Shown piece by piece: positions 376 to 60,705 of a DNA stretch of 64,000 nt. The notes beneath the pieces were generated by a model that was not told where the DNA came from, searched no databases, and saw nothing but the letters and a program-made list of their open reading frames with translations. The DNA comes from Candidatus Omnitrophota bacterium (lineage in GTDB: Bacteria > Omnitrophota > Gorgyraeia > Duberdicusellales > 4484-171), in contig JBAWWL010000003.1 in assembly GCA_037146775.1 (NCBI GenBank), forward strand, positions 66,334 through 130,333, given 5' to 3'. The translations under genes and the position numbers were made by a program. Positions within the stretch are counted from its first letter, which is position 1. Each line of letters opens with the position of its first letter.

Positions 376-1329
376 ATGAAGGTTTTAATTACCGGAATTA
401 CTGGTTTTGTGGGTTCGCATTTTGCGGAGTATCTTCTCAAAAAAGGAGATATAAAGATTTATGGACTAGTCAGGTGGCGTTCAGACATTAAAAATATAAG
501 CCACATTAAAGATAAATTGACTCTCTATGAGGCAGATATACGAGATTTTATGAGCGTAAAGAGCACCATTGAAAAAATTATGCCCGATAAAATTTTTCAT
601 CTGGCTGCCCAATCTTTTGTCGGTACCTCTTTCAATGCTCCGCAGGAAACCCTTACTACCAATATTATCGGCGAGCTGAATATTTTTGAAGCGGTAAAGG
701 CTTTAGGTATCAATCCCCCTATCCAGATTTGCGGTTCTTCCGAAGAGTACGGCCTGGTGCATAAAAACGAATTGCCCATAAAAGAAACTAACCCCTTGCG
801 TCCGCTTTCTCCCTATGCAGTAAGTAAGGTTACTCAAGACTTATTAGGTTACCAATACTTTAAGAGTTATGGATTAAACATAATAGTAACCCGCGCTTTT
901 AATCATACCGGAAGACGCCGCGGGGAACCTTTTGTCTCGTCCAATTTTTCTAAACAAATTGCCATGATTGAGAAAGGTAAGCAGGATCCGGTTATTCACG
1001 TAGGAAACTTAGAAGCAATAAGAGATTTTAATGACGTGAGAGATGTTGTAAGGGCTTACTGGTCATCTTTAGAAAAATGTAGGCCCGGAGAGGTTTATAA
1101 TATTTGTAGTGGCAAAGGCTATAGAATTCAGGAAGTTTTAGACATCCTTCTTTCTTATACAAAAGTGAAAGTTAAAATAAAGCAAGATCCGGAGCGCATG
1201 CGGCCGTCAGATGTTCCGGTTTTAATTGGCGATTGCTCAAAATTTAAAGAAGAAACCGGCTGGAGCCCGGAAATACCCTTTGAAAAGACACTCGAAGATT
1301 TATTGAATTATTGGAGAGAAAACGTTTAA
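376..1329 (+). CDS. SDR-family NDP-sugar dehydratase/reductase (GDP-mannose 4,6-dehydratase / Rmd-like)
   Basis: N-terminal Rossmann motif ITGITGFVGSHFAEYL, a YxxxK catalytic dyad (PYAVSK), and a Gmd-like FNHTGRRRGEPFVSSNFSKQIA segment. Confidence 0.65.
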   Translation: MKVLITGITGFVGSHFAEYLLKKGDIKIYGLVRWRSDIKNISHIKDKLTLYEADIRDFMSVKSTIEKIMPDKIFHLAAQSFVGTSFNAPQETLTTNIIGELNIFEAVKALGINPPIQICGSSEEYGLVHKNELPIKETNPLRPLSPYAVSKVTQDLLGYQYFKSYGLNIIVTRAFNHTGRRRGEPFVSSNFSKQIAMIEKGKQDPVIHVGNLEAIRDFNDVRDVVRAYWSSLEKCRPGEVYNICSGKGYRIQEVLDILLSYTKVKVKIKQDPERMRPSDVPVLIGDCSKFKEETGWSPEIPFEKTLEDLLNYWRENV

Positions 1330-1358
1330 ATCATAATTTGCACAAGAAATTAATTTCT

Positions 1359-2330
1359 ATGCCAATACAAAATATAGCTATGGTCGGCCTGGGCGCGTGG
1401 GGTAAAAATATTCTGCGTAATTTATATGAATTAAAAGCTATACGTGTCGCGTGTGACTGTAATCTTGATACCTTGCGCGAGCGCAAAAAAGAATTTCCTG
1501 ACATAGCTTATACTGCCACGTTTGACGATATCCTGAAAGATAACGCGGTTACGGCGGTATGTATTGCCACTCCTGCCTCAACACATTATAAATTAGCAAA
1601 GATGGCTCTTGATGCGCATAAAGACGTATTTGTGGAAAAGCCGTTGGCGTTTAATGTTAAACATGGCAGAGAGCTGATGCGTATCGCCGAGAAAAAAAAG
1701 AAAATTCTCATGGTTGGTCATATCCTGCAGTATCATCCGGCTATTATTAGACTCAAAAGCCTTCTTGAAGAAGGAGCTCTTGGGCAAGTGCAATATATCT
1801 ATTCCAATAGGTTGAATATAGGTAAATTGCGCGTTGAGGAAAATATTCTATGGAGTTTTGCTCCGCACGACATTTCTGTGCTTTTAATGCTGATTGGCTC
1901 AGAGCCTTTAAGGGTAGATTGTTTCGGTGCTTCTTATATCAATAAGGGTATCAGCGATGTTACTATGACTACCCTTGAATTTAAGAACAATATAAAAGCG
2001 CATATTTTTGTAAGCTGGTTACATCCTTTCAAAGAACACAAATTGATTGTAGTCGGTTCAAAGGCTATGGCAGTTTTTGACGATTTAACAAAAGAGAAAT
2101 TATTTATTTATCCTCACAAAATAGAGTGGCACAACGGTAAAATTCCTGTTGCGCATAAAGCCGAGTATTATTGTCTGCCCATAGAAGAGAAAGAGCCATT
2201 GCGAGAAGAAATATTACATTTTATTGAATGCATTGCTGCGCGTAAAGTTCCCAAGACAGACGTAAAAGAAGGCTTAAAAGTTTTAAAAGTATTGGCGGAA
2301 GCGGAGCGAAAGCTGCGCGCTAGAAAATAG
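1359..2330 (+). CDS. Gfo/Idh/MocA family oxidoreductase (WbpB-like NDP-sugar 3-dehydrogenase)
   Basis: Rossmann motif IAMVGLGAWG followed by the EKP motif (VFVEKPLA). The start is chosen at the in-frame ATG at 1359, after the previous stop; the listed ORF begins at 1311 inside the upstream gene. Confidence 0.65.
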   Translation: MPIQNIAMVGLGAWGKNILRNLYELKAIRVACDCNLDTLRERKKEFPDIAYTATFDDILKDNAVTAVCIATPASTHYKLAKMALDAHKDVFVEKPLAFNVKHGRELMRIAEKKKKILMVGHILQYHPAIIRLKSLLEEGALGQVQYIYSNRLNIGKLRVEENILWSFAPHDISVLLMLIGSEPLRVDCFGASYINKGISDVTMTTLEFKNNIKAHIFVSWLHPFKEHKLIVVGSKAMAVFDDLTKEKLFIYPHKIEWHNGKIPVAHKAEYYCLPIEEKEPLREEILHFIECIAARKVPKTDVKEGLKVLKVLAEAERKLRARK

Positions 2331-2339
2331 TAAAATATC

Positions 2340-2921
2340 ATGTCTAAACTAGCAAAAAAATATTTTATTCACACATCTTCCATTATTGACGAAAATGTGG
2401 AAATAGGAGAAGGAACTAGAGTTTGGCATTTTTCGCATGTGTTGTCTGGTTCGAAAATTGGCAAAAATTGTAATATCGGACAAAACGTGGTTATTGGCCC
2501 CAATGTTGTTATGGGCGATAATTGTAAGATACAAAATAATGTGTCGCTTTACGAAGGCGTTATGCTGGATGACGATGTATTTTGCGGGCCATCCTGTGTT
2601 TTCACGAATGTCATTAATCCCCGCAGCGCAGTTTGTAGAAGAAGCGAGATGCGCAAAACTATAGTCAAAAAGGGAGCCACCATCGGTGCCAATGCAACCA
2701 TTGTGTGCGGCCATACCTTAGGAAAACATTCTTTTGTCGGTGCCGCAGCGGTAGTAACAAAAGATGTGTCTGACTATGCTCTTGTGTATGGCAATCCTGC
2801 CCGTCTCAAGGGGTATATGTGTGAGTGCGGTATAAAACTAGAGTTTAAAAAGGCTAAAGCTATTTGTAAAAGTTGTGCTAAAACATATTGTAAAACTAGC
2901 GCTGGCATTCAAAAAATATAG
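2340..2921 (+). CDS. hexapeptide-repeat N-acetyltransferase (WbpD/WlbB-like)
   Basis: Left-handed beta-helix hexapeptide repeats (IGKNCNIGQNVVIGPNVVMGDNCKIQNNV). It sits next to an oxidoreductase and an aminotransferase, as in 2,3-diacetamido-sugar pathways. Confidence 0.6.
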   Translation: MSKLAKKYFIHTSSIIDENVEIGEGTRVWHFSHVLSGSKIGKNCNIGQNVVIGPNVVMGDNCKIQNNVSLYEGVMLDDDVFCGPSCVFTNVINPRSAVCRRSEMRKTIVKKGATIGANATIVCGHTLGKHSFVGAAAVVTKDVSDYALVYGNPARLKGYMCECGIKLEFKKAKAICKSCAKTYCKTSAGIQKI

Positions 2922-4226
2922 ATGGCAAAGAATTTATCTATACCTCTCTTAGATTTAAAACGCGAATATGCTTTCTTAAAGAAAAGTATCGATCGAGAGC
3001 TCAAAAGCTGCTTTGCTCATCAGGCCTGGATTCTGGGAGAAAAAGTAACCCAATTTGAAAATCAAGTCGCCAAGTATTTGGATACAAAACATGCCATTGG
3101 TGTTGCCTCCGGGACAGACGCTCTAATTTTATCTTTACGGGCTTTAGCTATAAAACTTAAAAATAAAGAGTATTTCGACAAAAACGATGAAATTATCACT
3201 ACACCCTTTACTTTTGTCGCTACTGCCGAAGCAATTGTTCGTAGCGGCGCTACGCCTGTGTTTGTAGATATAAACCCCAACACCTTTAATATTGATCCCC
3301 AAGAAATAAAAAAAGCTATCACTAAAAATACCGTAGGTATTATACCGGTGCATCTTTTTGGTTTAGCCTGCCAAATGAATGAAATTTTAAGTATCGCCCG
3401 GGAAAATAATTTATTTATCGTTGAAGACGTCGCCCAAGCTTTTGGAGCCGAATATAGGTCAGAAGTCAGAGGACAGAGGACAGAAGACAGAAAAAAACTG
3501 GGGACTATCGGTAATTGTGGGGCGTTTAGTTTTTTTCCTTCCAAGAACTTAGGTAGTTACGGTGATGCAGGAATGGTTACCACTAACGATCCTAAACTTG
3601 CCGAGTTAATCAAGGTATTGCGGGCTCATGGTCAAACCAAGCAGTACGATGCTGCGTATATCGGTTACAACTCCCGTCTCGATTCTATGCAGGCAGCCAT
3701 ACTCTTGGCTAAGCTAAAATATATCAATAAATTTAACTCTATCCGTATTGCTACTGCGCATAAATATTATCAGGCCTTAAAAGGTATCAAAAGTATCCAA
3801 CTCCCACCGATATTCGATGTCTCTGGCCATCGACTTCCGACCTCTGACCTCTGTCTTCTGTCTTCTGGTCTCCAGCCTCTGACCTCTGACGTCTGTCCTC
3901 TGTCTTCTGGTCTCCAACCTCTGATCTCTGACGTCTGTCGTCTGACTTCTGAATCCTCCCACGTCTACAACCTCTACACCATCAAAGTTTCTAGCCAGGT
4001 CCGCGATAAACTCCTAAGTTTTTTAAACACCAAAGGTATCGGCGCGCGCGTATATTACCCTGTTGCTCTTCACCAAATGAAAGCCTTCAAAAATGCCAAG
4101 ATTATAGGGAGCCTGCAAAATAGCGAAGAAGCTACCAAACAAGTAATTTCTTTACCCGTCCACCCCTTTTTAAAACCGCAAGAAATAAAATTAGTTATTC
4201 AAACAATAACTGAAGCAAGCCAATAA
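2922..4226 (+). CDS. DegT/DnrJ/EryC1/StrS-family PLP aminotransferase (WbpE-like), carrying two in-frame repeat insertions
   Basis: Conserved DegT blocks (ITTPFTFVATAEAI, IVEDVAQAFGA, FSFFPSKNLGSYGDAG, HVYNLYTI). It is about 40-50 aa longer than usual because of heptamer-repeat-encoded inserts at 3456-3492 and 3836-3952. Confidence 0.75.
   Translation: MAKNLSIPLLDLKREYAFLKKSIDRELKSCFAHQAWILGEKVTQFENQVAKYLDTKHAIGVASGTDALILSLRALAIKLKNKEYFDKNDEIITTPFTFVATAEAIVRSGATPVFVDINPNTFNIDPQEIKKAITKNTVGIIPVHLFGLACQMNEILSIARENNLFIVEDVAQAFGAEYRSEVRGQRTEDRKKLGTIGNCGAFSFFPSKNLGSYGDAGMVTTNDPKLAELIKVLRAHGQTKQYDAAYIGYNSRLDSMQAAILLAKLKYINKFNSIRIATAHKYYQALKGIKSIQLPPIFDVSGHRLPTSDLCLLSSGLQPLTSDVCPLSSGLQPLISDVCRLTSESSHVYNLYTIKVSSQVRDKLLSFLNTKGIGARVYYPVALHQMKAFKNAKIIGSLQNSEEATKQVISLPVHPFLKPQEIKLVIQTITEASQ
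3456..3492 (+). repeat. heptanucleotide tandem repeat (GTCAGAG/GACAGAA units), forward orientation, in frame inside the DegT gene
   Basis: Five consecutive 7-nt units encode SEVRGQRTEDRK. This is the same unit family as 52271-52430. Confidence 0.7.
3836..3952 (-). repeat. heptanucleotide tandem repeat array, inverted copy (CTCTGAC/TTCTGTC units), in frame inside the DegT gene
   Basis: About 16 units that are the reverse complement of GTCAGAG/GACAGAA. Read on the - strand they give the RTEDRGQ-type peptide (antisense ORF 3777..3962). Confidence 0.7.
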
Positions 4227-4255: not shown

Positions 4256-4397
4256 ATGAAAGAAGTTGATATTACTATTATTGGTGCGGGAGTGGTAGGT
4301 TTGGCAATTGCCGCAAGACTTGCCAAAGTAAACCGTTCTCTATACGTGATAGAAAGGCATGATTCTTTTGGCCAGGAGACTAGCTCAGGGAATTGAA
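4256..4397 (+). pseudogene. truncated duplicate of the N-terminus of the FAD-dependent oxidoreductase gene at 5977..7122
   Basis: Encodes MKEVDITIIGAGVVGLAIAARLAKVNRSLYVIERHDSFGQETSSGN then a stop. The first ~55 nt are near-identical to 5983-6037, and the sequence diverges after that. Confidence 0.6.
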
Positions 4398-4504: not shown

Positions 4505-5836
4505 ATGAAAAGAGACTTGGAAAGAGATTTATTCAATTGGAAAGAATGCAAAGATAGGCTGCCATTATTATTGCGCGGCGCGCGGCAAGTAGGTAAAAGT
4601 TATATTGTAGAAGAGTTTGGGAAGAAGGCCTTTAAAAATATAGTTATCGTTAATTTTGAATTTAGGCCTGAACTTAAACAATGTTTTACTACACTTGACC
4701 CCGTTGAAATTATTAATAAGCTGCAGCTGCTTACGGGTGAAGTCATAGAAGCAGAAAATACTTTGCTTTTTCTCGATGAGATACAGGAATGCCCCAATGC
4801 AATAATGGCTTTACGGTATTTCAAGGAAAAGCATGATCGGCTTGCCGTTATCGGGGCAGGTTCATTGATGGAATTTGCTCTTAATAATTCAAGTTTTAAA
4901 ATGCCGGTAGGAAGAGTGCAGTTTATATATCTTGAGCCTTTATCGTTTGGCGAGTTTTTGACGGCATCCGGGAATGAACTGTTGCGGAGTCATCTGCGGG
5001 AAATACGATTGAGCAGCGTATTTGAAAACACGGTACACCAGAAGTTGATGGATTTGTTGCGGGTATATCTTATTGTAGGAGGTATGCCGGCAGTGGTTAA
5101 AGAATATCTTGATAACAGAAACTTTTTAAATTGCCAGCGAATTCAAAATTCTTTACTGCAAGCGTATCGGAATGATTTTGGGAAATATGCTAAGACTTCT
5201 GAACAGAAATATTTACAAAAAGTATTAGATGAAGCTCCGCGGCTTGTTGGCGATCGCATTAAGTATTCGAATATCGATGCTGATAGTAAATCAAGAGATA
5301 TTAAACAGGCGCTTAACCTTTTAAAATTAACCGGTATTATTTATCCGGTATATGCAACTAGCGCTTCAGGGCTTCCTTTGGAAGCGCAAGTTAATGAAAT
5401 GAAATTTAAGTTAAATTTTCTTGATGTAGGTCTAATGCAAAATGCATGCGGTTTACAATCAGAACTTACATTAACGAACGATTTTATTCAGATTAATTCC
5501 GGCGCTGTAACGGAGCAGTTTATCGGCCAGGAATTAAGGGCCCATTATGATAGTTATTTAAAGCGAGGCCTTTTTTTCTGGGCGCGTGATAAAAAAAACA
5601 GTTCAGCTGAAGTTGACTATGTTATCGCGGTAGATTCCTTAATACTGCCGGTAGAGGTTAAGGCAGGCAAGACCGGCACGCTTAAGTCACTAAAGCTGTT
5701 TATGGAAGAAAAGAAGTCATTGTTTGGCGTGCGCTTTTCGCAGGAGAAGTTATCTTTGTATGATAAAGTATTAACATTGCCGTTATATATGACAGAGCAG
5801 ATAAAAAGATTAGTTCGGGAAGCAGGCAGCCTATAA
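4505..5836 (+). CDS. AAA-family ATPase (COG1373 / DUF4143-type)
   Basis: Walker A motif GARQVGKS, a Walker B-like LLFLDEIQ, and a length and architecture typical of the predicted ATPase (AAA+) with a C-terminal DUF4143 domain. Confidence 0.65.
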   Translation: MKRDLERDLFNWKECKDRLPLLLRGARQVGKSYIVEEFGKKAFKNIVIVNFEFRPELKQCFTTLDPVEIINKLQLLTGEVIEAENTLLFLDEIQECPNAIMALRYFKEKHDRLAVIGAGSLMEFALNNSSFKMPVGRVQFIYLEPLSFGEFLTASGNELLRSHLREIRLSSVFENTVHQKLMDLLRVYLIVGGMPAVVKEYLDNRNFLNCQRIQNSLLQAYRNDFGKYAKTSEQKYLQKVLDEAPRLVGDRIKYSNIDADSKSRDIKQALNLLKLTGIIYPVYATSASGLPLEAQVNEMKFKLNFLDVGLMQNACGLQSELTLTNDFIQINSGAVTEQFIGQELRAHYDSYLKRGLFFWARDKKNSSAEVDYVIAVDSLILPVEVKAGKTGTLKSLKLFMEEKKSLFGVRFSQEKLSLYDKVLTLPLYMTEQIKRLVREAGSL

Positions 5837-7315: not shown

Positions 7316-8062
7316 TCATTCTTTGATATTTAATTTAAATAGCTCACGTTTTTGCATTCTTATCTTAACCAAGCCAAGAAAAGACTTTATCCCATCGCGC
7401 AAAGGCTTTACCTTAGAGGTTTCTTTTTTGTCTTTCCAGGTTATCGGCACCTCTTTTATACTAAAAGAAAGCCGAGCTGCTAGATAGATTACTTCACTGT
7501 CAAAACTCCAATCATTTCTCGTGACGCGGGAAAAGATACTTTTTGCTGCTTCTTTTTTAAATAACTTAAAACCACAATTATAGTCTCTAATTTTTGTCCC
7601 AAGAATCACCCCAGAAAGCATTATATAGATATTGCCTAAAATATTTCTATGTAGCGGTTGATAGGTTTCTATGGTTGCTCCGGGCACTCGACGAGAGGCA
7701 ATGGCGATATCGTTTCCATCCATAATTACCGCTATCAGCTTATCAAGTTGGCCAATGCGGGTAGAATTGTCCGCATCCATAAAAAGTATTAGTTCCCCAT
7801 TTGCTGCAAGTATACCTCTTTTGACGGTATAGCCCTTGCCGTGGTTAGTATCGTTTTTCAAAAGGGTAAAAGTATTGAATGCTGGTGCTATTTTGTATGC
7901 AGCCTCAACGGTTTTATCGGTCGAACCATCATCAATCACAATTATCTCGTACTGATAATCCTTCGTTTTAAGATAATCGACAATTTCCTGTAGAGTAGAG
8001 CTGATATTCAACTCTTCGTTGTATGCGGGAATGACTATTGATAAATATATTTTTCTCATCAA
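7316..8062 (-). CDS. GT2 polyprenyl-phosphate sugar synthase (DPM1/GtrB/ArnC-like)
   Basis: LSIVIPAYNEE near the N-terminus, DDGSTD, and the DAD motif (FMDADNS). Confidence 0.8.
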   Translation of the reverse strand: MMRKIYLSIVIPAYNEELNISSTLQEIVDYLKTKDYQYEIIVIDDGSTDKTVEAAYKIAPAFNTFTLLKNDTNHGKGYTVKRGILAANGELILFMDADNSTRIGQLDKLIAVIMDGNDIAIASRRVPGATIETYQPLHRNILGNIYIMLSGVILGTKIRDYNCGFKLFKKEAAKSIFSRVTRNDWSFDSEVIYLAARLSFSIKEVPITWKDKKETSKVKPLRDGIKSFLGLVKIRMQKRELFKLNIKE

Positions 8063-44627: not shown

Positions 44628-45752
44628 ATGAGGTATGTTTTTAAAAAAGTTAGATATAAATTTCTTGTATTTATAATAGATTCTTTAGGCTACGTCATTT
44701 TTTTCTTCCCTCGTTTCTTCAAAAAAAATACCCCATTATCACCCAAGAAAATACTTGTGGTACGCGTGGATCACATAGGTGATTTTGTGTGCACACTACC
44801 TGTTTTTGAGAATCTAAAATTAAACTTTCCTCAGAGCAAAATCAGTGTTTTAATCAACTCTTCCTCAGTATCCTTAGCAAAACTTAGTCCGCATATTGAC
44901 GAAATAATTTCGGTTAACCCATTTTGGATGCAAAGGGGTAACAAACGCCTTTCTTTTAGGGAGATATTTAAAGTAATACGTGAACTGCGTGAACAAAATT
45001 TTGATTTAGGTTTTGATATGCGCGGAGATTTTTTCTCAATTGCGCTTATGTTTTTAGGCAGAGTAAGGTATAGGGTGGGGTATGCGGTTACTGGGGGAGG
45101 GTTCTTATTAGGTAAGAATGTTTTATATACTAAGAATATAAATACGGTCGAGCGTAATTTTAATCTATTAAGAAATATCGGCGTTCCGATAAAAAAATCG
45201 AGCATCGAACTTAAATTTAGCGATGAAGATAAAAATATAGTTATGTGTATGTTGCAAGACCTATCACTTAAAGAGCAAAAATCCGTTATTTTACATCCTT
45301 TTGCCGGTACTAAAGCAAAACAATGGAGTGTAAGTAAATTTCAAGAGTTAATTGATCAGCTGCGAAAAGCAAATTTTAATATTTTTGTTATTGGTACCAA
45401 AACCGATACAGAACATTATGATGGAGTATGTGATGTGCGAGGTAGATTTGCCTTATCGCAACTAGCATTTTTTATAAAACATGTAGGGTTTTTTATCGGG
45501 CTTGATTCCGGCCCAGCAAATATCGCTGCCGTACTTGATGTACCGACAATAGTAATTTGTTCCGGCACGAATATCCCAGAGCGCTGGATATTTATCGGCA
45601 AAAATGTTAAGCTGGTTTATCGTGATACCGATTGTAAGCCTTGTGAGCTTAAGATTTGCCCTAAAAACAAGCATTATTGTATGGAGGATATTGGGGTGGG
45701 GGAGGTCATGGGTGAGGTGGATAGGTTGATAGGTGGGTATGTTGATAAGTGA
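44628..45752 (+). CDS. GT9-family glycosyltransferase (ADP-heptose:LPS heptosyltransferase-like)
   Basis: KILVVRVDHIGDFVCTLPVF N-terminal GT9 signature and the C-terminal GLDSGPANIAA region. Confidence 0.7.
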   Translation: MRYVFKKVRYKFLVFIIDSLGYVIFFFPRFFKKNTPLSPKKILVVRVDHIGDFVCTLPVFENLKLNFPQSKISVLINSSSVSLAKLSPHIDEIISVNPFWMQRGNKRLSFREIFKVIRELREQNFDLGFDMRGDFFSIALMFLGRVRYRVGYAVTGGGFLLGKNVLYTKNINTVERNFNLLRNIGVPIKKSSIELKFSDEDKNIVMCMLQDLSLKEQKSVILHPFAGTKAKQWSVSKFQELIDQLRKANFNIFVIGTKTDTEHYDGVCDVRGRFALSQLAFFIKHVGFFIGLDSGPANIAAVLDVPTIVICSGTNIPERWIFIGKNVKLVYRDTDCKPCELKICPKNKHYCMEDIGVGEVMGEVDRLIGGYVDK

Positions 45753-45786
45753 TTAAGTTAGTAGGTGGGTGAATAAGGAGAGTGTC

Positions 45787-46143
45787 ATGGGCGGGAGTTG
45801 GAAAGATTTGGATGTTTGGCGGGAGAGTCATTCTTTAGTTTTACAATTGTACAAATTGGTGAGTACTTTTCCGGCCACAGAAAGATATGCCTTGGTCGAT
45901 CAAATAAAACGGGCGGCATATTCTATACCAGCAAATATTGTTGAAGGCCACTCAAGAAACAGTAAGAAGGAATTTCAACGTTATCTTTATATCTCTAGAG
46001 GTTCCCTAGAGGAGTTAAGGTATTTCTTGTTGTTGGCGAAAGACTTGCATTATATCGATGATGTAATCCATAAAGAATATGAAGATAAATTATCGCGGGT
46101 AAGTAAAATGTTGAATGGTTTGATAAGGTCTTTAACATACTAA
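45787..46143 (+). CDS. four-helix-bundle protein (family formerly called 23S rRNA intervening-sequence protein, TIGR02436)
   Basis: WRESHSLVLQLYKLVSTFPATERYALVDQIKRAAYSIPANIVEGHSR...ISRGSLEELRYFLLLAKDL is the hallmark sequence of this family. An RBS AAGGAGAG precedes the ATG. Confidence 0.8.
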   Translation: MGGSWKDLDVWRESHSLVLQLYKLVSTFPATERYALVDQIKRAAYSIPANIVEGHSRNSKKEFQRYLYISRGSLEELRYFLLLAKDLHYIDDVIHKEYEDKLSRVSKMLNGLIRSLTY

Positions 46144-46175
46144 CATAATAACCTATTAACATAACAACTAAGCCA

Positions 46176-47249
46176 ATGAAAATATTCTTTGATGCTAGAA
46201 TGATTGCGCATGCCGGAATCGGTAGGTATATTCGGGGAATATTGCCGGAGATTGCCAAAGATAAGTCTATTGAATTGTGCTTATTAGGTAACCGAATCCT
46301 TATTGAAAAATTCTTTGATGCACAAAATAGAGTTATTGATTTTAATTATCCTATCTATTCTATCCAAGAACAAATAGGTTTCAAAAAGCTAAAAAGTACC
46401 ATTGGCGACAATCTTCTTCATGTCCCTCACTACAACATTCCGGTTTTTGCACCGTACAATTTGGTTGTAACCATCCATGATCTAATCCATATTCTCTATC
46501 CACAAGGAGCAAGCAGCTATTTTGCGCGTTTCTATATGAATTTTATGATTAGAAAGGTTTTGAGTATGGCAAAAAAAGTGATATGTGTTTCTGGTCACAC
46601 TAAAGAAGCTATTTGTCATAATTATCATGTAGCCGGCACAAATTTGGAGGTAGTTGGGGAAGGCGTTGATGGTAGTTTTTCAAAGATAACAGACGAGGGC
46701 TTTCTGGACGCCATTAAACAGAAATATCACTTACCGGGTAAATTTATTCTGTATGTCGGCAGCATCCGTAAGCACAAGAATATTACAATGCTTTTAGAAG
46801 TATTTTCAAAAATCAGAAAAGAAATGCCCGAGGTATCTTTAGTTCTTGTTGGTAAACTTTCTCAATCCTTTGATTTGAAGCTCGATGGCGTGCATTATCT
46901 GGGCGAGGTCCCTGACGACAAGGAATTAGCAGCAATATATAATCTTTCTTCTGTATTTTGTAATCTCTCGCTTTTTGAGGGTTTTGGCTTAACTATTCTG
47001 GAAGCACAGGCTTGTGGCGTGCCAATAGTTTGTAGCGATATAGCGGTACATCGGGAGACTGGAGGAAACGGTATTCTGGCGGTTCCTCCAAGTAATGTTG
47101 ACCAGATAGCACAAGCTCTATATAATGTTTTAACTAAACAAACCTTTCAAGACATTCTTATCAAGAATGGGCTTGAGAATGTGCAGCGATTCAGCTGGCA
47201 GAAAGCATCCGAAAGGGTGGTAGAGTTATATAGGTTGGTAGGTGGATAG
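46176..47249 (+). CDS. GT4-family glycosyltransferase
   Basis: EGFGLTILEAQACGVPIVCSDIAVHRETGG. Confidence 0.8.
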   Translation: MKIFFDARMIAHAGIGRYIRGILPEIAKDKSIELCLLGNRILIEKFFDAQNRVIDFNYPIYSIQEQIGFKKLKSTIGDNLLHVPHYNIPVFAPYNLVVTIHDLIHILYPQGASSYFARFYMNFMIRKVLSMAKKVICVSGHTKEAICHNYHVAGTNLEVVGEGVDGSFSKITDEGFLDAIKQKYHLPGKFILYVGSIRKHKNITMLLEVFSKIRKEMPEVSLVLVGKLSQSFDLKLDGVHYLGEVPDDKELAAIYNLSSVFCNLSLFEGFGLTILEAQACGVPIVCSDIAVHRETGGNGILAVPPSNVDQIAQALYNVLTKQTFQDILIKNGLENVQRFSWQKASERVVELYRLVGG

Positions 47250-47347
47250 GTTGGCATGTTAGTAGGTTATGGCATTACCAACGTTAAATTTTTACGTATC
47301 AACATAACAACTTAACAACATATTAATCTAACAATATAACAACCAAA

Positions 47348-48484
47348 ATGAAAATAGCGATAGTCCATGATTGGTTAACCGGTATGCGCGGCGGAGAAAA
47401 ATGTTTGGAGGTATTTTGTGAACTTTTTCCGCAGGCTACCATATTTACCCTTTTACACAACAAAGGTTCTGTTTCTAGAATTATTGAAAGTATGAAAATT
47501 AAAACTTCTTTTATGCAGCATTTACCAAAAGCAAACATGCATTACAGAAATTACCTTCCTTTGTTTCCAAGGGCGGTTGAGAGTTTTGATTTAAAAGAAT
47601 TTGATTTCGTTTTGAGCTCAAGTCACTGTGTTGCTAAGGGTGCGCGAAAACCACCGCAGGCAAAACATCTTTGTTACTGTTATACCCCGATGCGTTATGC
47701 CTGGTTTTTTTTTGAACAATATTTTGGCTCGTATCCTTCTTGGAAGAAGAAAATTGTGCAAGCTACTACCGAATACCTGAAAAAATGGGATTTGGCGACT
47801 CTTAATAGAGTGGATGAATTTATGGCTATATCAGAGACAGTCAAGGAAAGGATACATACGATATATAACCGGGGGGCAGAAGTGATTTATCCACCCGTTG
47901 ACATTGAAAACTTTCAGGCAGATTCTCGTAGTGCACAAGATTTTTACTTATGTGTATCTTCGTTAGTCCCGTACAAGCGGATAGACGTTATTATTGAAGC
48001 GTTTAATCAAATGCCCGATAAAAAACTCATTATTGTCGGCGATGGTCATCTGCGCAAGGATCTCGAACAAAGAAAAATATCCAAGAATATAAACCTCTTG
48101 GGATGGCTTCCTCAAAAAGATTTAGTCTCTCTCTACCGCCAAGCATGCTGTTTCGTATATGCGGCTGAGGAAGATTTTGGCATCGCACCAGTAGAGGCTC
48201 AAGCCTCTGGCGTGCCTGTCGTAGCTTATGGTAAAGGCGGAGTAACCGAAACAGTTGTTGCGCTAAATGCTACCGCTGCGAAACAACATCCTACGGGATT
48301 ATTCTTTGATAAACAGACTAGTAGCTCCTTGATTGCGGCGATAGAACTGTTTGAAAAAATGAAACAGGAGTTTAGTTCGGAAACGATAAGACAGCACGCG
48401 TTGCAATTCTCACGGCAGCATTTTAAAGAAAGAATACAGGAATATATACACCAAAAAATAGGCAGTTATTGCTATGTTAACTAA
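47348..48484 (+). CDS. GT4-family glycosyltransferase
   Basis: IAIVHDWLTGMRGGEKCLE N-terminus and an EDFGIAPVEAQASGVPVV GT-B C-terminal motif. It contains a T9 homopolymer at 47705-47713. Confidence 0.75.
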   Translation: MKIAIVHDWLTGMRGGEKCLEVFCELFPQATIFTLLHNKGSVSRIIESMKIKTSFMQHLPKANMHYRNYLPLFPRAVESFDLKEFDFVLSSSHCVAKGARKPPQAKHLCYCYTPMRYAWFFFEQYFGSYPSWKKKIVQATTEYLKKWDLATLNRVDEFMAISETVKERIHTIYNRGAEVIYPPVDIENFQADSRSAQDFYLCVSSLVPYKRIDVIIEAFNQMPDKKLIIVGDGHLRKDLEQRKISKNINLLGWLPQKDLVSLYRQACCFVYAAEEDFGIAPVEAQASGVPVVAYGKGGVTETVVALNATAAKQHPTGLFFDKQTSSSLIAAIELFEKMKQEFSSETIRQHALQFSRQHFKERIQEYIHQKIGSYCYVN

Positions 48485-50184: not shown

Positions 50185-51519
50185 ATGATTATTAAAAGAT
50201 TAGACTACATCAGCGAGTTTTTCCTTTTTGTGCTCATGGTGGGTATTACCGTTAACAACGCTCCCACGGAAGTGGCATCTTATCTTCTTATTTTTATTTT
50301 TTTACTGAAACATATTATTCGTCGCGACATCAAACTGCCCAGCTCCCCAATAAATATATTTTTATGCATGTATTCTGTCGTAGTGCTGGTTACGCTCATA
50401 CACAGTAGTTATTTTGGTGAAAGTATAAAAGGTTTTTCGCGGGTTCCTAAATATATATTTTTATATCTTGCCCTGGTTGAACTTTTTAAAAATGATCTGA
50501 AGCGATTAAATCGTTTTTTTTGGATAATAATGGTTGTTTCTGCGGTTACTTTTATAAATGGTGTATTCCAGAGTATTTTTGGTTTTGATTTTTTCAGGCA
50601 TAACGCCATAGATGGGCCGACATCGTTATGCCGTATCAGCTCATCATTTGTTCATTCTAACGACTTCGGATCTTACATAATTACAGTATTGCCTTTGACA
50701 TTCTTGATATTTTCTTCGCTTATCAGCAAAAGAAAAAGGTTAGCATTATTACCCGTAAGTCTTTTGGGTTTTTATTGCCTTTTAAGAACATCTTCTCGGG
50801 GGGCCTGGCTCGGTTTTCTTATAGCAATAATCATATATTTTTTTATGTATAAGAAAAAAATCGCTATACTTATACCTATTATTTTCATAATTTTGATTAT
50901 GTTTTTGCCTTACGGATTCGAACGCGTAACAAGTATTTTTAAGACTAACCAAGGGACTGTCTGGGAAAGAACCAAGCTTTGGCAGGGTGCGTGGGGTATG
51001 ATAAAAGAACATCCTGTTTTAGGCCTTGGCGTAAACACCTTTTCTAAAAATTTTCCTCAATATAAACCCGCAGATTATCCGGACTTAAGATATGCGCATA
51101 ATTCTTATCTACAGATGTGGGCAGAAATAGGATTGTTAGGGTTAATTATATTTTTAGCTATGCCTTTGACTATTTTGGCTAAAGCTTTCAAGGGTATAAA
51201 AAATGAAATTCCATATACTTCCCGCGGCAAGCTCGCCTCGCTTGAGCTTCGGCGAAGCGGGCCGCGGGGTATTCAGTTCATTCCTCCGAAGCCGAATTCC
51301 CTGCGACAAACTACAGGGTGTTCGGCGGAGGAGAATAAAATAAAAGCTGGTCCCCAAGGTTTAATCCTTTTGGGAGCTGTGTGTGGTTATGTGGGGTTTT
51401 TAGTGCAGAGTGGTATGGATAACAACTTATTTTCTCTTGTCCTTACTACTCTTTTTTGGGTATTCAGTGCTTACATTGTTTCCTGGAATAGTTATCTTGA
51501 AAATAAAAACCATGCCTAA
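50185..51519 (+). CDS. O-antigen ligase / Wzy_C-family membrane protein (WaaL-like), carrying an in-frame repeat-element insertion
   Basis: Polytopic protein with the Wzy_C periplasmic-loop motif YAHNSYLQMWAEIGLLGLIIF. Codons ~347-385 are encoded by GC-rich element A (51222-51337). Confidence 0.65.
   Translation: MIIKRLDYISEFFLFVLMVGITVNNAPTEVASYLLIFIFLLKHIIRRDIKLPSSPINIFLCMYSVVVLVTLIHSSYFGESIKGFSRVPKYIFLYLALVELFKNDLKRLNRFFWIIMVVSAVTFINGVFQSIFGFDFFRHNAIDGPTSLCRISSSFVHSNDFGSYIITVLPLTFLIFSSLISKRKRLALLPVSLLGFYCLLRTSSRGAWLGFLIAIIIYFFMYKKKIAILIPIIFIILIMFLPYGFERVTSIFKTNQGTVWERTKLWQGAWGMIKEHPVLGLGVNTFSKNFPQYKPADYPDLRYAHNSYLQMWAEIGLLGLIIFLAMPLTILAKAFKGIKNEIPYTSRGKLASLELRRSGPRGIQFIPPKPNSLRQTTGCSAEENKIKAGPQGLILLGAVCGYVGFLVQSGMDNNLFSLVLTTLFWVFSAYIVSWNSYLENKNHA
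51222..51337 (+). repeat. GC-rich palindromic MITE-like element A (module 1 plus module 2), in frame within the ligase gene
   Basis: Module 1 CCCGCGGC-AAGCTCGCCTCGCTTGAGCTTCGGCGAAGCGGGC-CGCGGGG is homologous to 60064-60098. Module 2 TCAGTTCATTCCTCCGAAGCCGAATTCC...GTTCGGCGGAGGAGAAT is homologous to the reverse complement of 56694-56783. Confidence 0.65.
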
Positions 51520-52402
51520 AAATTACTCTTTAGCGGCAGTCATACTTACTTGCAATTCGGAAAAGAAACTAGAGCAATGTTTAGCTTCTCTGTCTGGGTG
51601 GGTAGACGAAATTATATTGGTTGATGGTCAAAGTCATGACCGCACCATTGCGATTGCTGAACGTTTTGGGGCCAAAATATATTCGCACGCATTTTTAGGG
51701 GCTTTTTCGAAAGAAAGGAATTTTGGAATAGAAAAAGCAAATAGCCAATGGGTTTTGCAGTTAGATAGTGACGAAGTGGTAACTCAGGACTTTAAGAACA
51801 CCTGTGATGAGGCCTTGCCAAGCACTTTATGCGTTTCGTTTAAGTTTCTGCGCAAGAACAACTTTTTGGGGCATTTTTTCCAGTATGGCGGCTGGCATCA
51901 TTGGTCGCAGCACTTACTTAAAAAAGGTTATGCTCATTATGAGGGCAGAGTCCATGAGCGCATGGTGGTAGACGGTGAGGTGGGGTTGATTGAGGCGGAT
52001 ATATTGCATTTTCCGTTCGACAGCCTTACAGAATTCATCGAGCGGCAAAATCGTTACACGACTTTACAAGCCCAAGATATCCTGGATGGCGAAAAAGACC
52101 TCACCATGAAAAAAATTAAATATAATATTATCTGGAAACCGCTGAAACTTTTTAAAAAAATGTACCTGAATAAAAAAGGCTATAAAGAAGGAATGTATGG
52201 ATTTGTTTTTTCGGTATTATTTGCCTGGGTACATTTTGTAAAATGGGCGAAGGTGTGGGAAGTGTACAGTAAGACAGAAGTCAGAGGTCAGAAGACAGAA
52301 GTTAGGGACAGAGGTCAGAGAACAGAAGACAGAGGACAGGGGTCAGAGGACAGAGGTCAGAGAACAGAAGACAGAAAACAGAGGGCGGAAGACAGAGGAT
52401 AG
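51512..52402 (+). CDS. GT2-family glycosyltransferase (KdtX/WaaE-like) with a heptamer-repeat-encoded C-terminal tail
   Basis: AAVILTCNSEKKLEQCL...LQLDSDE GT-A motifs. The last ~45 aa (SKTEVRGQKTEVRDRGQRTEDRGQGSEDRGQRTEDRKQRAEDRG) are encoded by the heptamer array. Confidence 0.65.
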   Translation: MPKNYSLAAVILTCNSEKKLEQCLASLSGWVDEIILVDGQSHDRTIAIAERFGAKIYSHAFLGAFSKERNFGIEKANSQWVLQLDSDEVVTQDFKNTCDEALPSTLCVSFKFLRKNNFLGHFFQYGGWHHWSQHLLKKGYAHYEGRVHERMVVDGEVGLIEADILHFPFDSLTEFIERQNRYTTLQAQDILDGEKDLTMKKIKYNIIWKPLKLFKKMYLNKKGYKEGMYGFVFSVLFAWVHFVKWAKVWEVYSKTEVRGQKTEVRDRGQRTEDRGQGSEDRGQRTEDRKQRAEDRG

Positions 52403-52430
52403 AGGGCAGAAGGCAGAGATCTGGCATCTG
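52271..52430 (+). repeat. heptanucleotide tandem repeat array (~23 units of GACAGAG/GTCAGAG/AACAGAA)
   Basis: A 7-nt periodicity visible by eye. It runs through the stop codon (52400-52402) of the GT2 gene and ~28 nt beyond, and is the same family as 3456-3492 and 3836-3952. Confidence 0.75.
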
Positions 52431-60215: not shown

Positions 60216-60318
60216 GTTTAACGCATAACGAGACAGAAAGCTGTAAACACATCTATCGAATTATACACACAACTTAAAACTTATAACTTACAATTAGCAT
60301 TCTTGCGAGGAGGTAACT

Positions 60319-60705
60319 ATGGAGAAAAGAAGGATTCTTGTGGTTGATGACGAAGAAGATATTTGTATTTTTCTCAAAGACATATTAGCCCGCGTCGGAT
60401 TTGAGGTTTATACTGCGTTAAGCGGGCAACAGGCTATGGAGATTTTTAAGAAGTATAAGCCGCATGCGTGCATTATTGACGTGCATATGCCATTTTCCGA
60501 ATATGACGGTATAGAAGTCTTGAGGCGCATTAAAGAGCTCGATAAAAAAACCAACTGTGTTATGATAACGCGTATTGATGATGATGAAAAAATAACCGAA
60601 GCAGCGTCTTTGGGGGCGCAAGAGTATTTAATAAAACCTGTGCGCTTGGAAAAGCTAAAAGAATTGGCAGAATCTTTGAAGGCTGACACCCCTTCGAAAA
60701 AATAA
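60319..60705 (+). CDS. single-domain response regulator (CheY-like receiver)
   Basis: ILVVDDEEDI with the conserved Asp pocket, and a phospho-acceptor Asp in IIDVHMP. There is no output domain, and the RBS is GAGGAGG. Confidence 0.8.
   Translation: MEKRRILVVDDEEDICIFLKDILARVGFEVYTALSGQQAMEIFKKYKPHACIIDVHMPFSEYDGIEVLRRIKELDKKTNCVMITRIDDDEKITEAASLGAQEYLIKPVRLEKLKELAESLKADTPSKK

Follow-up and report, generated by a model that had tools for sequence, protein, structure and literature searches.

We analyzed a stretch of 64,000 nt from the genome of a Candidatus Omnitrophota bacterium (assembly GCA_037146775.1, contig JBAWWL010000003.1, positions 66,334 to 130,333 of the forward strand), hereafter called the window, in which a gene for a sugar aminotransferase carries two tandem arrays of a 7-nt unit. 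Positions given without a locus name are those of the window. The gene lies on the plus strand at 2922..4226 and is intact, and its product of 434 amino acids (aa) was assigned to the DegT/DnrJ/EryC1 family of WbpE-like, pyridoxal phosphate (PLP)-dependent sugar aminotransferases (PF01041, E = 6.7e-110). An identical protein (100%), MEI8349151.1, is known from a metagenome-assembled genome of Candidatus Omnitrophota, where it is encoded on a 200-kb contig. Its closest solved relatives are 7b0d (a sugar transaminase of Archaeoglobus), QdtB and WbpE 3nyu. The Pfam match, the catalytic lysine motif and the type-I aminotransferase fold predicted by the model described below all point to the DegT family.

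The first array (array 1, at what we call site 1) occupies 3456..3492 on the plus strand and consists of about 5 units (GTCAGAA, GTCAGAG, GACAGAG, GACAGAA and GACAGAA). The second (array 2, site 2) occupies 3836..3952 in reverse orientation, with about 16-17 units of the GWCAGAR type, including the variants GYTGGAG and ACCAGAA. A third array (array 3) is found at 52273..52418 on the plus strand, where 21 units form the 3' end of a GT2 glycosyltransferase gene. GNCAGAR is the family consensus unit of all three. In each of them the 7-nt units stand head to tail in at least 3 copies, as in heptamer simple sequence repeats (SSRs) and in arrays resembling the short tandemly repeated repetitive (STRR) sequences of cyanobacteria, and the unit family is dispersed over three loci within 64 kb, twice forward and once in reverse. 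Unlike the STRR, GGGAATC and TAACTGA repeats, which are mainly intergenic, all three arrays of this window overlap open reading frames (ORFs).

Tandem Repeats Finder returned period 7 for every array, with 4.7 copies and 88% matches for array 1 (from 3456 or 3460 to 3492), 16.3 copies and 71% matches for array 2 (3839-3952), and 21 copies for array 3. Arrays 2 and 3 have an additional higher-order period of 42 nt, equal to 6 units or 14 codons, which in array 2 extends over 2.7 copies with 91% matches. When the two-unit family pattern GACAGAGGACAGAG was searched with up to 3 mismatches, 30 matches were obtained in the window, compared with 1.5 expected and a maximum of 5 in shuffled sequences, and all 30 are confined to 3458-3492 (plus), 3842-3946 (minus) and 52273-52418 (plus). 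An autocorrelation over lags 4-12 gave segments at lag 7 only and within these arrays only, and none in the shuffled sequence. The observation with which a preliminary description of this DNA had started, that two inverted arrays of one heptamer family lie in frame in one gene, is therefore confirmed by three procedures, among them the 7-nt autocorrelation that it had proposed. A search for further GACAGAG arrays, also proposed there, yielded array 3 in the 64-kb window as well as arrays in related loci. Perfect 7-nt periodicity is sustained over stretches of at most 18, 18 and 13 nt in arrays 1, 2 and 3 respectively (18 nt being 2.6 units), and perfect 42-nt periodicity over stretches of up to 60 nt in array 2 and 70 nt in array 3. 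Because the latter exceed the former, the recent growth of the arrays is attributed to duplications of 42 nt, which keep the frame.

All arrays are translated. Array 1 encodes RSEVRGQRTEDR, which follows directly after AQAFGAEY. The plus-strand translation of array 2 is PTSDLCLLSSGLQPLTSDVCPLSSGLQPLISDVCRLTSE, about 40 residues of the LTSDLCLLSSGLQP type that end before HVYNLYT. On the minus strand, array 2 is spanned by an ORF of 61 aa (3777..3962). This ORF, which the preliminary description had listed as coding for the same type of peptide, is indeed present, but we rejected it as a gene. It exists because all frames of the reverse complement of array 2 are free of stop codons; an ORF that arises in this way from the repeat itself gives no evidence of a gene. 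We also discarded the idea that GACAGAG is special in being free of stops on both strands, since about 50% of all heptamers are likewise.

The coding strand of array 2 does contain stop codons. There are 7 TGA codons, split 4 and 3 between the two frames that are not used; the reading frame itself is free of them. The units that bear TGA stand only at indices congruent to 0 or 1 modulo 3, and the 5-6 units of the third phase are all free of it. By hand calculation the chance of this arrangement is C(11,7)/C(17,7) = 0.017, a value which ignores that some 42-nt blocks are duplicates of each other. Selection on the reading frame can be seen in array 2. A related locus, L088, presents the same constraint in another unit: GACTTAG would place TAG in frame, and exactly every third unit there is GACTATT, so that a perfect 21-nt higher-order repeat results.

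The structural position of the two inserts was examined with an AlphaFold2 model built on 33 orthologues (mean predicted local distance difference test score, pLDDT, 81.5). The core of the model superposes on 7b0d_A and on WbpE 3nyu_B with a target-normalized template modeling (TM) score of 0.92, which, together with the PF01041 match, bears out the DegT/WbpE-like identity that had been proposed from the letters of the DNA. Compared with 7b0d and QdtB, the protein has an insertion of 10 aa after AEY at site 1. At site 2, its residues 288-344 stand opposite 13 residues of 7b0d, that is, about 44 aa are extra. In the model, site 1 is a loop (residues 181-188, pLDDT around 62) in a hairpin between the strands 177-180 and 189-192, and site 2 (residues 299-348, pLDDT below 50) has no secondary structure and connects the large domain, from its last helix, to the first strand of the C-terminal domain. 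The catalytic K208 in SFFPSK and the residues D169 and Q172 occupy invariant alignment columns, K208 being invariant in all 33 orthologues. Because of the gaps in the structure alignments, the loops in the model and these invariant catalytic residues, both inserts are taken to be extra loops in an otherwise intact enzyme, which probably retains its activity. The model thus agrees with the earlier proposal that the arrays sit at loop positions, now specified as a hairpin turn and a disordered linker, and leave the conserved blocks unbroken, including the one with the catalytic lysine. As is typical of Rickettsia palindromic elements, the insertions are in frame and predicted to leave the fold undisturbed.

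We then compared the gene with its relatives. The homologue set consisted of the 120 best matches, mostly Omnitrophota proteins of 373-416 aa, about 80 of which could be measured at both sites; the DNA at both sites was read for eight loci found by exact-protein look-up. Orthologues that are 57-78% identical have heptamer arrays at exactly these two codon positions. Among the approximately 80 measurable orthologues, site 1 has the base length in 61 and exactly 10 extra residues in 12, while the lengths of site 2 peak at 31, 33 and 38 aa and reach their maximum of 77 aa in the window protein itself. A period of 7 aa is evident in many of the inserts, among them LNTQYSILNT, STINQQPSTIN and IDLGLRTIDLGLRT. 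Therefore, the inserts which the preliminary description had recognized are extra with respect to the solved structures, but they are not peculiar to this gene, since its relatives share the sites.

The units at these shared sites differ widely. RGWCAGA units are found at site 1 of the window gene, L081 and L082. Site 2 is filled by reverse GNCAGAG x16 in the window and by an AACTTAC array broken by a GC-rich palindrome in L081, and it has no heptamer array in L082. L085 combines AACCAGA at site 1 with about 5 units of AACTTAC at site 2, and L086 combines AACTCCA/AACTACA with about 5 units of AACTTAC. In the sister locus L084, both sites contain ACTCACG in direct orientation. L087 has a GC-rich palindrome in place of the array at site 1 and AACCATC x8 at site 2, and L088 has no insert at site 1 and GACTTAG x5.6 at site 2. 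Some of these arrays are nearly perfect (AACCATC x7.4 with 95% matches in L087, ACTCACG x3.4 with 100% in L084). Because orthologues hold arrays at identical positions with differing units, the sites are old while the content of the arrays turns over. In a neighbor-joining tree of conserved columns, the site-1 insert is restricted to one clade, in which several members have the base or an intermediate length, and this fits a single old gain followed by several full or partial losses. The GNCAGAR family also occurs in the related loci L081, L082, L085 and L086, and heptamer arrays in the related loci are found at gene junctions, between genes and at gene ends, often in forward/reverse pairs. 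A scan of genome contigs for further relatives gave, among the matches listed, one Omnitrophota locus, which is without the insert.

Two further sequences in these loci should be mentioned. The GC-rich palindrome GCCTGCCTGCCGGCCAGGCAGGGATCC, seen at L087 9942-9968 and in L091, is translated in frame at site 1 of the orthologue P0017, and a copy at L081 10898-10918 lies within the site-2 heptamer array. In a strain that is 98% identical it is inverted in place, with the frame kept (ACLPARQGS becomes GSLPCRQAG). It was searched for in the 64-kb window and is absent. The window does contain, at 60271-60290, just 5' of the ORF 60319..60705, an array of 2.9 AACTTAA/AACTTAT units, which resemble the AACTTAC units at site 2 of L081, L085 and L086.

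A direct view of array change was provided by P0017. Its cluster at 90% identity contains proteins of 412 and 405 aa, and the variants, which are 98-100% identical, differ by exactly 7 aa, or 21 nt, or three AACCATC units at site 2, as seen in both protein and DNA. In this orthologue the copy number therefore varies in steps of the unit. At the scale of the whole gene, the DNA identity of the window gene to L081 is about as high as that to L084 up to about 3551 (70-83%; 2922-3551 compared with L081 10001-10630). Past this point the identity to L081 falls to the level of distant orthologues (56-72%), compared with 75-92% for L084 outside the array regions, which weakly suggests that an old recombination joint may lie near site 1. 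The protein P0003 looks closer to the window gene only up to about site 1. The notion that the segment between the arrays is an exchangeable cassette was rejected, because a comparison segment by segment places P0002 nearest to the window gene throughout (84, 85 and 81% identity in the three segments).

Array 3 lies in a different kind of position. The maximal ORF of its GT2 gene is 51410..52402 on the plus strand (PF00535); the database protein has 301 aa, and P0196 is 100% identical to it. Array 3 encodes the C-terminal tail of 43 aa (KTEVRGQ...RAEDRG) and extends 16 nt beyond the stop codon, a TAG located inside a mutated GATAGAG unit. The orthologues of this protein are 254-265 aa long and end 3-20 aa past KWAKVWE. 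Outside the window, stretches with at least 4 GWCAGAR units were found in at least 120 places in metagenome contigs, and the GC content ranges from 0.32 to 0.72 among the 80 loci listed; therefore, the family is not confined to Omnitrophota. Such arrays lie in frame inside unrelated housekeeping genes, namely those for aspartyl-tRNA synthetase (in the GAD domain), PriA, RecG and an Rce1-like protease (metagenome loci L125, L144, L136 and L138). When the repeat peptide was used as a query, it matched only tiny unannotated ORFs of 36-77 aa, few of which carry a source name and one of which is a hypothetical protein of Leptospira inadai. It follows that such arrays are often miscalled as genes.

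Short-unit arrays of other kinds are present in the same region. A gene for a PF05635 '23S rRNA intervening sequence protein' (45769..46143, E = 8e-39) is located between two inverted arrays of 8-nt units (45712-45766 and 46134-46168; 34 nt, 79% complementary), the first of which also codes for the final codons of the GT9 gene 44628..45752. In L081, heptamer arrays at 7346-7372 and 7776-7802 likewise flank an intervening sequence protein gene (7400..7795). In such a layout the repeat arrays seem to form the stem of a hairpin, with a small gene as its loop. Two more arrays of 8-nt units, 47231-47268 (TAGGTTGG) and 47300-47344 (CAACATAA), are found between the GT4 genes 46176..47249 and 47348..48484; none of the repeats at 47231-47344 formed an inverted pair above the thresholds.

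The neighborhood of the aminotransferase gene is one of glycan synthesis. Directly upstream on the plus strand are genes for a GFO/IDH/MocA oxidoreductase (1311..2330, PF01408/PF22725) and a hexapeptide acetyltransferase (2340..2921, PF00132). Judged by analogy with the Wbp pathway of Pseudomonas aeruginosa, on which the assignment is based, the three genes would constitute a WbpB-WbpD-WbpE-like set for a diacetamido sugar. The window has a GC content of 37%, nearly all of its ORFs are on the plus strand, and each ORF that we tested against Pfam is a glycan-synthesis enzyme. Downstream, 4256-4396 encodes an N-terminal remnant, 46 aa long, of a DAO-type FAD oxidoreductase (PF01266 positions 1-42 of 353), followed by AT-rich DNA and an AAA_14/DUF4143 ATPase gene (4505..5836), which looks like a gene cut off by an insertion. 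In L088, three AAA_14/DUF4143 genes lie around the aminotransferase orthologue. Inteins are also found beside orthologues, namely in a GDP-mannose-dehydratase-like protein with an Intein_splicing domain (L081 3333-5411) and in a UDP-glucose/GDP-mannose dehydrogenase with a LAGLIDADG domain (L085 4600-7365). Both are sugar-nucleotide enzymes. The glycan clusters of these loci gather in-frame passengers of several kinds.

Heptamer arrays inside genes have precedents, and the preliminary description, which supposed in-frame heptamer microsatellites in a sugar aminotransferase to be undescribed, was too strong. The nearest family of ideas, as that description had suggested, is the STRR of heterocystous cyanobacteria, whose STRR1-3 units we take to be CCCCAGT, TTGGTCA and CAACAGT. 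Both consist of head-to-tail 7-nt arrays of a few to about 20 copies, with several dispersed families per genome, some inverted pairs and no established mechanism of spread. STRR are mostly intergenic, however, while the three arrays of the window are translated, and the unit (GNCAGAR) and the host (Candidatus Omnitrophota) are different, so that they are not cyanobacterial STRR in the strict sense. The STRR and the general abundance of heptameric SSRs in bacteria were described by Mazel 1990 and Mrazek 2007 as summarized in PMC4692102, according to which heptamers are over-represented among bacterial SSRs, are mostly intergenic and under-represented in coding regions, and sometimes form inverted pairs. 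The TAACTGA repeats of Beggiatoaceae, cyanobacteria and Bacteroidetes carry forward stop codons and for the most part shortly precede start codons, a position for which a role in translation has been proposed. In Beggiatoaceae, however, 10 sets lie within ORFs, in the orientation that is free of stops, and one of these falls in a surface loop of an RpoC-like protein; other sets extend over the end of an ORF, and between Cyanothece strains there are indels of 7-nt steps (PMC4679880). They share with our arrays the heptamer unit, a minority inside ORFs, a variable surface loop and the 7-nt steps, but GNCAGAR is stop-free in the forward direction, and the arrays of the window lie inside conserved enzyme genes at positions shared by orthologues. 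In Geobacter metallireducens, GGGACCG x4 arrays inside genes were reported and interpreted as regulatory RNA elements (PMC2700814). They are comparable to the presence of two arrays within one gene; their units are GC-rich and their copy number is fixed at four, whereas ours are degenerate and range from 5 to 21 copies.

Two other systems resemble the arrays in their outcome. Rickettsia palindromic elements, which Ogata et al. in 2000 are said to have described as palindromes of about 100-150 bp with a defined length, also are repetitive sequences that conserved proteins accept in frame at their surface. The likeness drawn in the preliminary description holds for this tolerance and not for the element, because the arrays of the window are tandem heptamers of variable length; the palindrome of L087 and L081 is a closer analogue. 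The tandem repeats of Borgs create disordered protein regions, and their unit lengths within ORFs are always divisible by three (PMC9879509). Here, too, fast-evolving repeats add disordered, low-complexity segments to ORFs, and homologous proteins have repeats at similar places. The difference is that our unit is 7 nt, so that the frame is kept only per three units, and that stops are avoided by unit variants locked to the codon phase. In a full-text literature search, no link between Omnitrophota and heptamer or tandem repeats was found. The arrays are thus of a known kind already; what is new is the occupancy of orthologous sites with turnover of the units, the 21-nt polymorphism between strains and the phase-locked avoidance of stops.

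We account for these observations by STRR-like heptamer SSRs at permissive sites, which turn over by slippage or unequal exchange under constraints of frame and stop codons and whose loops are tolerated passengers; we assign this explanation a probability of about 0.68. According to it, heptamer arrays in Omnitrophota would occupy permissive sites such as gene junctions, the 3' termini of genes and flexible loops on protein surfaces, and would grow, shrink and be homogenized through replication slippage or unequal exchange. Within ORFs, an array would survive only if its total length is divisible by 3 and no stop falls in frame, with units that place a stop in frame being replaced at every third position. 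Change would then become visible in steps of 21 nt (3 units) or 42 nt, because only frame-compatible, stop-free arrays survive. Both sites would have held heptamer arrays since before the divergence of several Omnitrophota lineages; site 1 would have retained an insert of 30 nt, while site 2 would have expanded in the window gene through duplications of 42 nt. Translation yields a longer hairpin loop and a disordered interdomain linker, which would be tolerated by the PLP enzyme as nearly neutral passengers and not as functional modules. The data themselves show the anatomy of the arrays, the constraints on frame and stop codons, the sites that orthologues have in common, the 21-nt difference between strains and the position in loops; slippage as the mechanism, near-neutrality and retained activity of the enzyme are inferred from them.

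Several points weigh against this explanation. Site 1 is exactly 30 nt in the 12 orthologues although several of its units share substitutions: three of the five units of L085 do so, and those of L086 have changed jointly to another unit type. Slippage alone explains this poorly. In addition, the two sites tend to share a unit family within a genome (GNCAGAG here, ACTCACG in L084), which slippage leaves unexplained; the outgroup L081 has different families at its two sites. The joint change of units at a constant length of site 1 suggests that arrays may exchange sequence, or be written in some other manner, in addition to slipping. Neutrality is assumed, and the long retention could also reflect selection for a longer loop. 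Finally, all three arrays of the window are in glycan-synthesis genes and none is intergenic, which fits a contingency role as well as chance, because nearly all genes of the window are of this kind. An extension of these points would be that the arrays are actively rewritten by a genome-wide copy-paste process, ectopic conversion or a dedicated enzyme, that installs translatable, length-variable, low-complexity loops in glycan-synthesis and housekeeping enzymes, and that the arrays might serve as recombination joints, in view of the possible breakpoint near site 1 in the comparison with L081. We regard this as a minor possibility.

The preliminary description had suggested phase variation of the glycan. 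In contingency loci, as in Haemophilus, Neisseria and Campylobacter, non-triplet SSRs are located in or near surface and glycan genes. Heptanucleotide repeats, for example, are mentioned for the HMW1A locus of H. influenzae in PMC8262952. Slips of one or two heptamers would shift the frame of the aminotransferase or the GT2 gene and switch a diacetamido-sugar glycan on or off within the population, much as SSRs act in the glycan and surface-protein loci of host-adapted pathogens. The unit length, which is not a multiple of 3, and the location of all three arrays of the window in glycan-biosynthesis ORFs agree with such a role, as do the array lengths that differ among near-identical strains of P0017, the contig of P0122 from a P0017-type population, which breaks inside the array, and the nearly perfect arrays in L087 and L084. 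But contingency tracts are long, perfect and variable within populations, while the arrays of the window are degenerate (71-88% matches) and evolutionarily stable in position. Because their longest perfect 7-nt tract is 18 nt, they are a poor substrate for slippage by single units, and their clean periodicity is the frame-keeping one of 42 nt. Moreover, the only variant among the assembled relatives is the in-frame one of 21 nt, and 12 diverged orthologues agree in the length of their site-1 insert, which would not be expected of a hypermutable tract. Frameshift truncations linked to the arrays were sought among the cluster members and none was found, the short members being partial or ending far from the arrays. 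Phase variation is therefore not supported, and we hold a contingency locus to be unlikely. The recent in-frame insertion of a small mobile repeat made of heptamers, similar to a Rickettsia palindromic element or a miniature inverted-repeat transposable element, seems less likely still. It is true that the family recurs three times within 64 kb and also turns up in many unrelated metagenome contigs, that one family tends to fill both sites of a genome, and that a GC-rich palindrome occupies these same loops in relatives (site 1 of L087, site 2 of L081). Nevertheless, the arrays have no defined ends, target-site duplication or constant length, the orthologous sites are occupied clade-wide with length changing by multiples of the unit, and the palindrome itself is missing from the window.

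It had also been suggested that the inverted pair forms an mRNA stem or allows inversion or deletion. Pairing between the arrays is indeed predicted: the arms of 35 nt are 83% complementary, and in the minimum-free-energy fold of 3440-3970 the two arrays are paired with each other (z = -4.5 compared with shuffles). This lineage has other inverted pairs of short-unit arrays, which enclose short loops or PF05635 genes, as in the two cases described above, and forward and reverse arrays are adjacent in L085 and L086. For a functional structure, which would regulate through an mRNA stem or a DNA cruciform or mediate inversion or deletion of 3493-3835, the complementarity should matter, yet orthologues do not preserve it; the repeats of L084 are direct, and in L081, L085 and L086 the units of one site are unrelated to those of the other. 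An inversion of 3493-3835 would flip the segment with the catalytic lysine and destroy the gene, the orientation of the arrays agrees in both available assemblies, and a scan of the whole 64-kb window against Rfam at gathering thresholds returned no family. Because the inverted arrangement is not conserved among orthologues, we consider neither a functional mRNA stem nor an inversion switch to be supported, and their probability to be very low. Repeats are also classic sites of misassembly, and the contig of one relative stops inside an array, so that an artefact or chimera, which the preliminary description had itself named as fatal to its case, had to be considered. In an independent assembly (Logan, SRR12676968), a 17.7-kb contig carries the aminotransferase gene with all 1305 nt identical, and for this reason an artefact is unlikely. 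The frame is kept across both arrays, and the orthologues with arrays at these sites come from many samples and assemblers, which leaves misassembly with an almost negligible probability. The Logan contig stops 63 nt past the aminotransferase gene.

Taken together, the arrays represent a lineage habit of a known repeat type, neither a one-off insertion nor a demonstrated switch, and the interpretation offered in the preliminary description is partly supported. The gene is a clean natural case of a repeat with a non-triplet unit that persists in an enzyme of an essential type: the frame is held per three units, stops are removed in phase, and the arrays are limited to two loops that the fold tolerates. 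Omnitrophota, an uncultured phylum with very small cells, is hereby added to the lineages rich in heptamer repeats, and the orthologue set can be used to measure the turnover of the repeats. For annotation, low-complexity loops, spurious antisense ORFs and contig breaks are to be expected at such arrays. If it were true that the arrays slip by single units, they would constitute a surface-glycan switch in an environmental bacterium.

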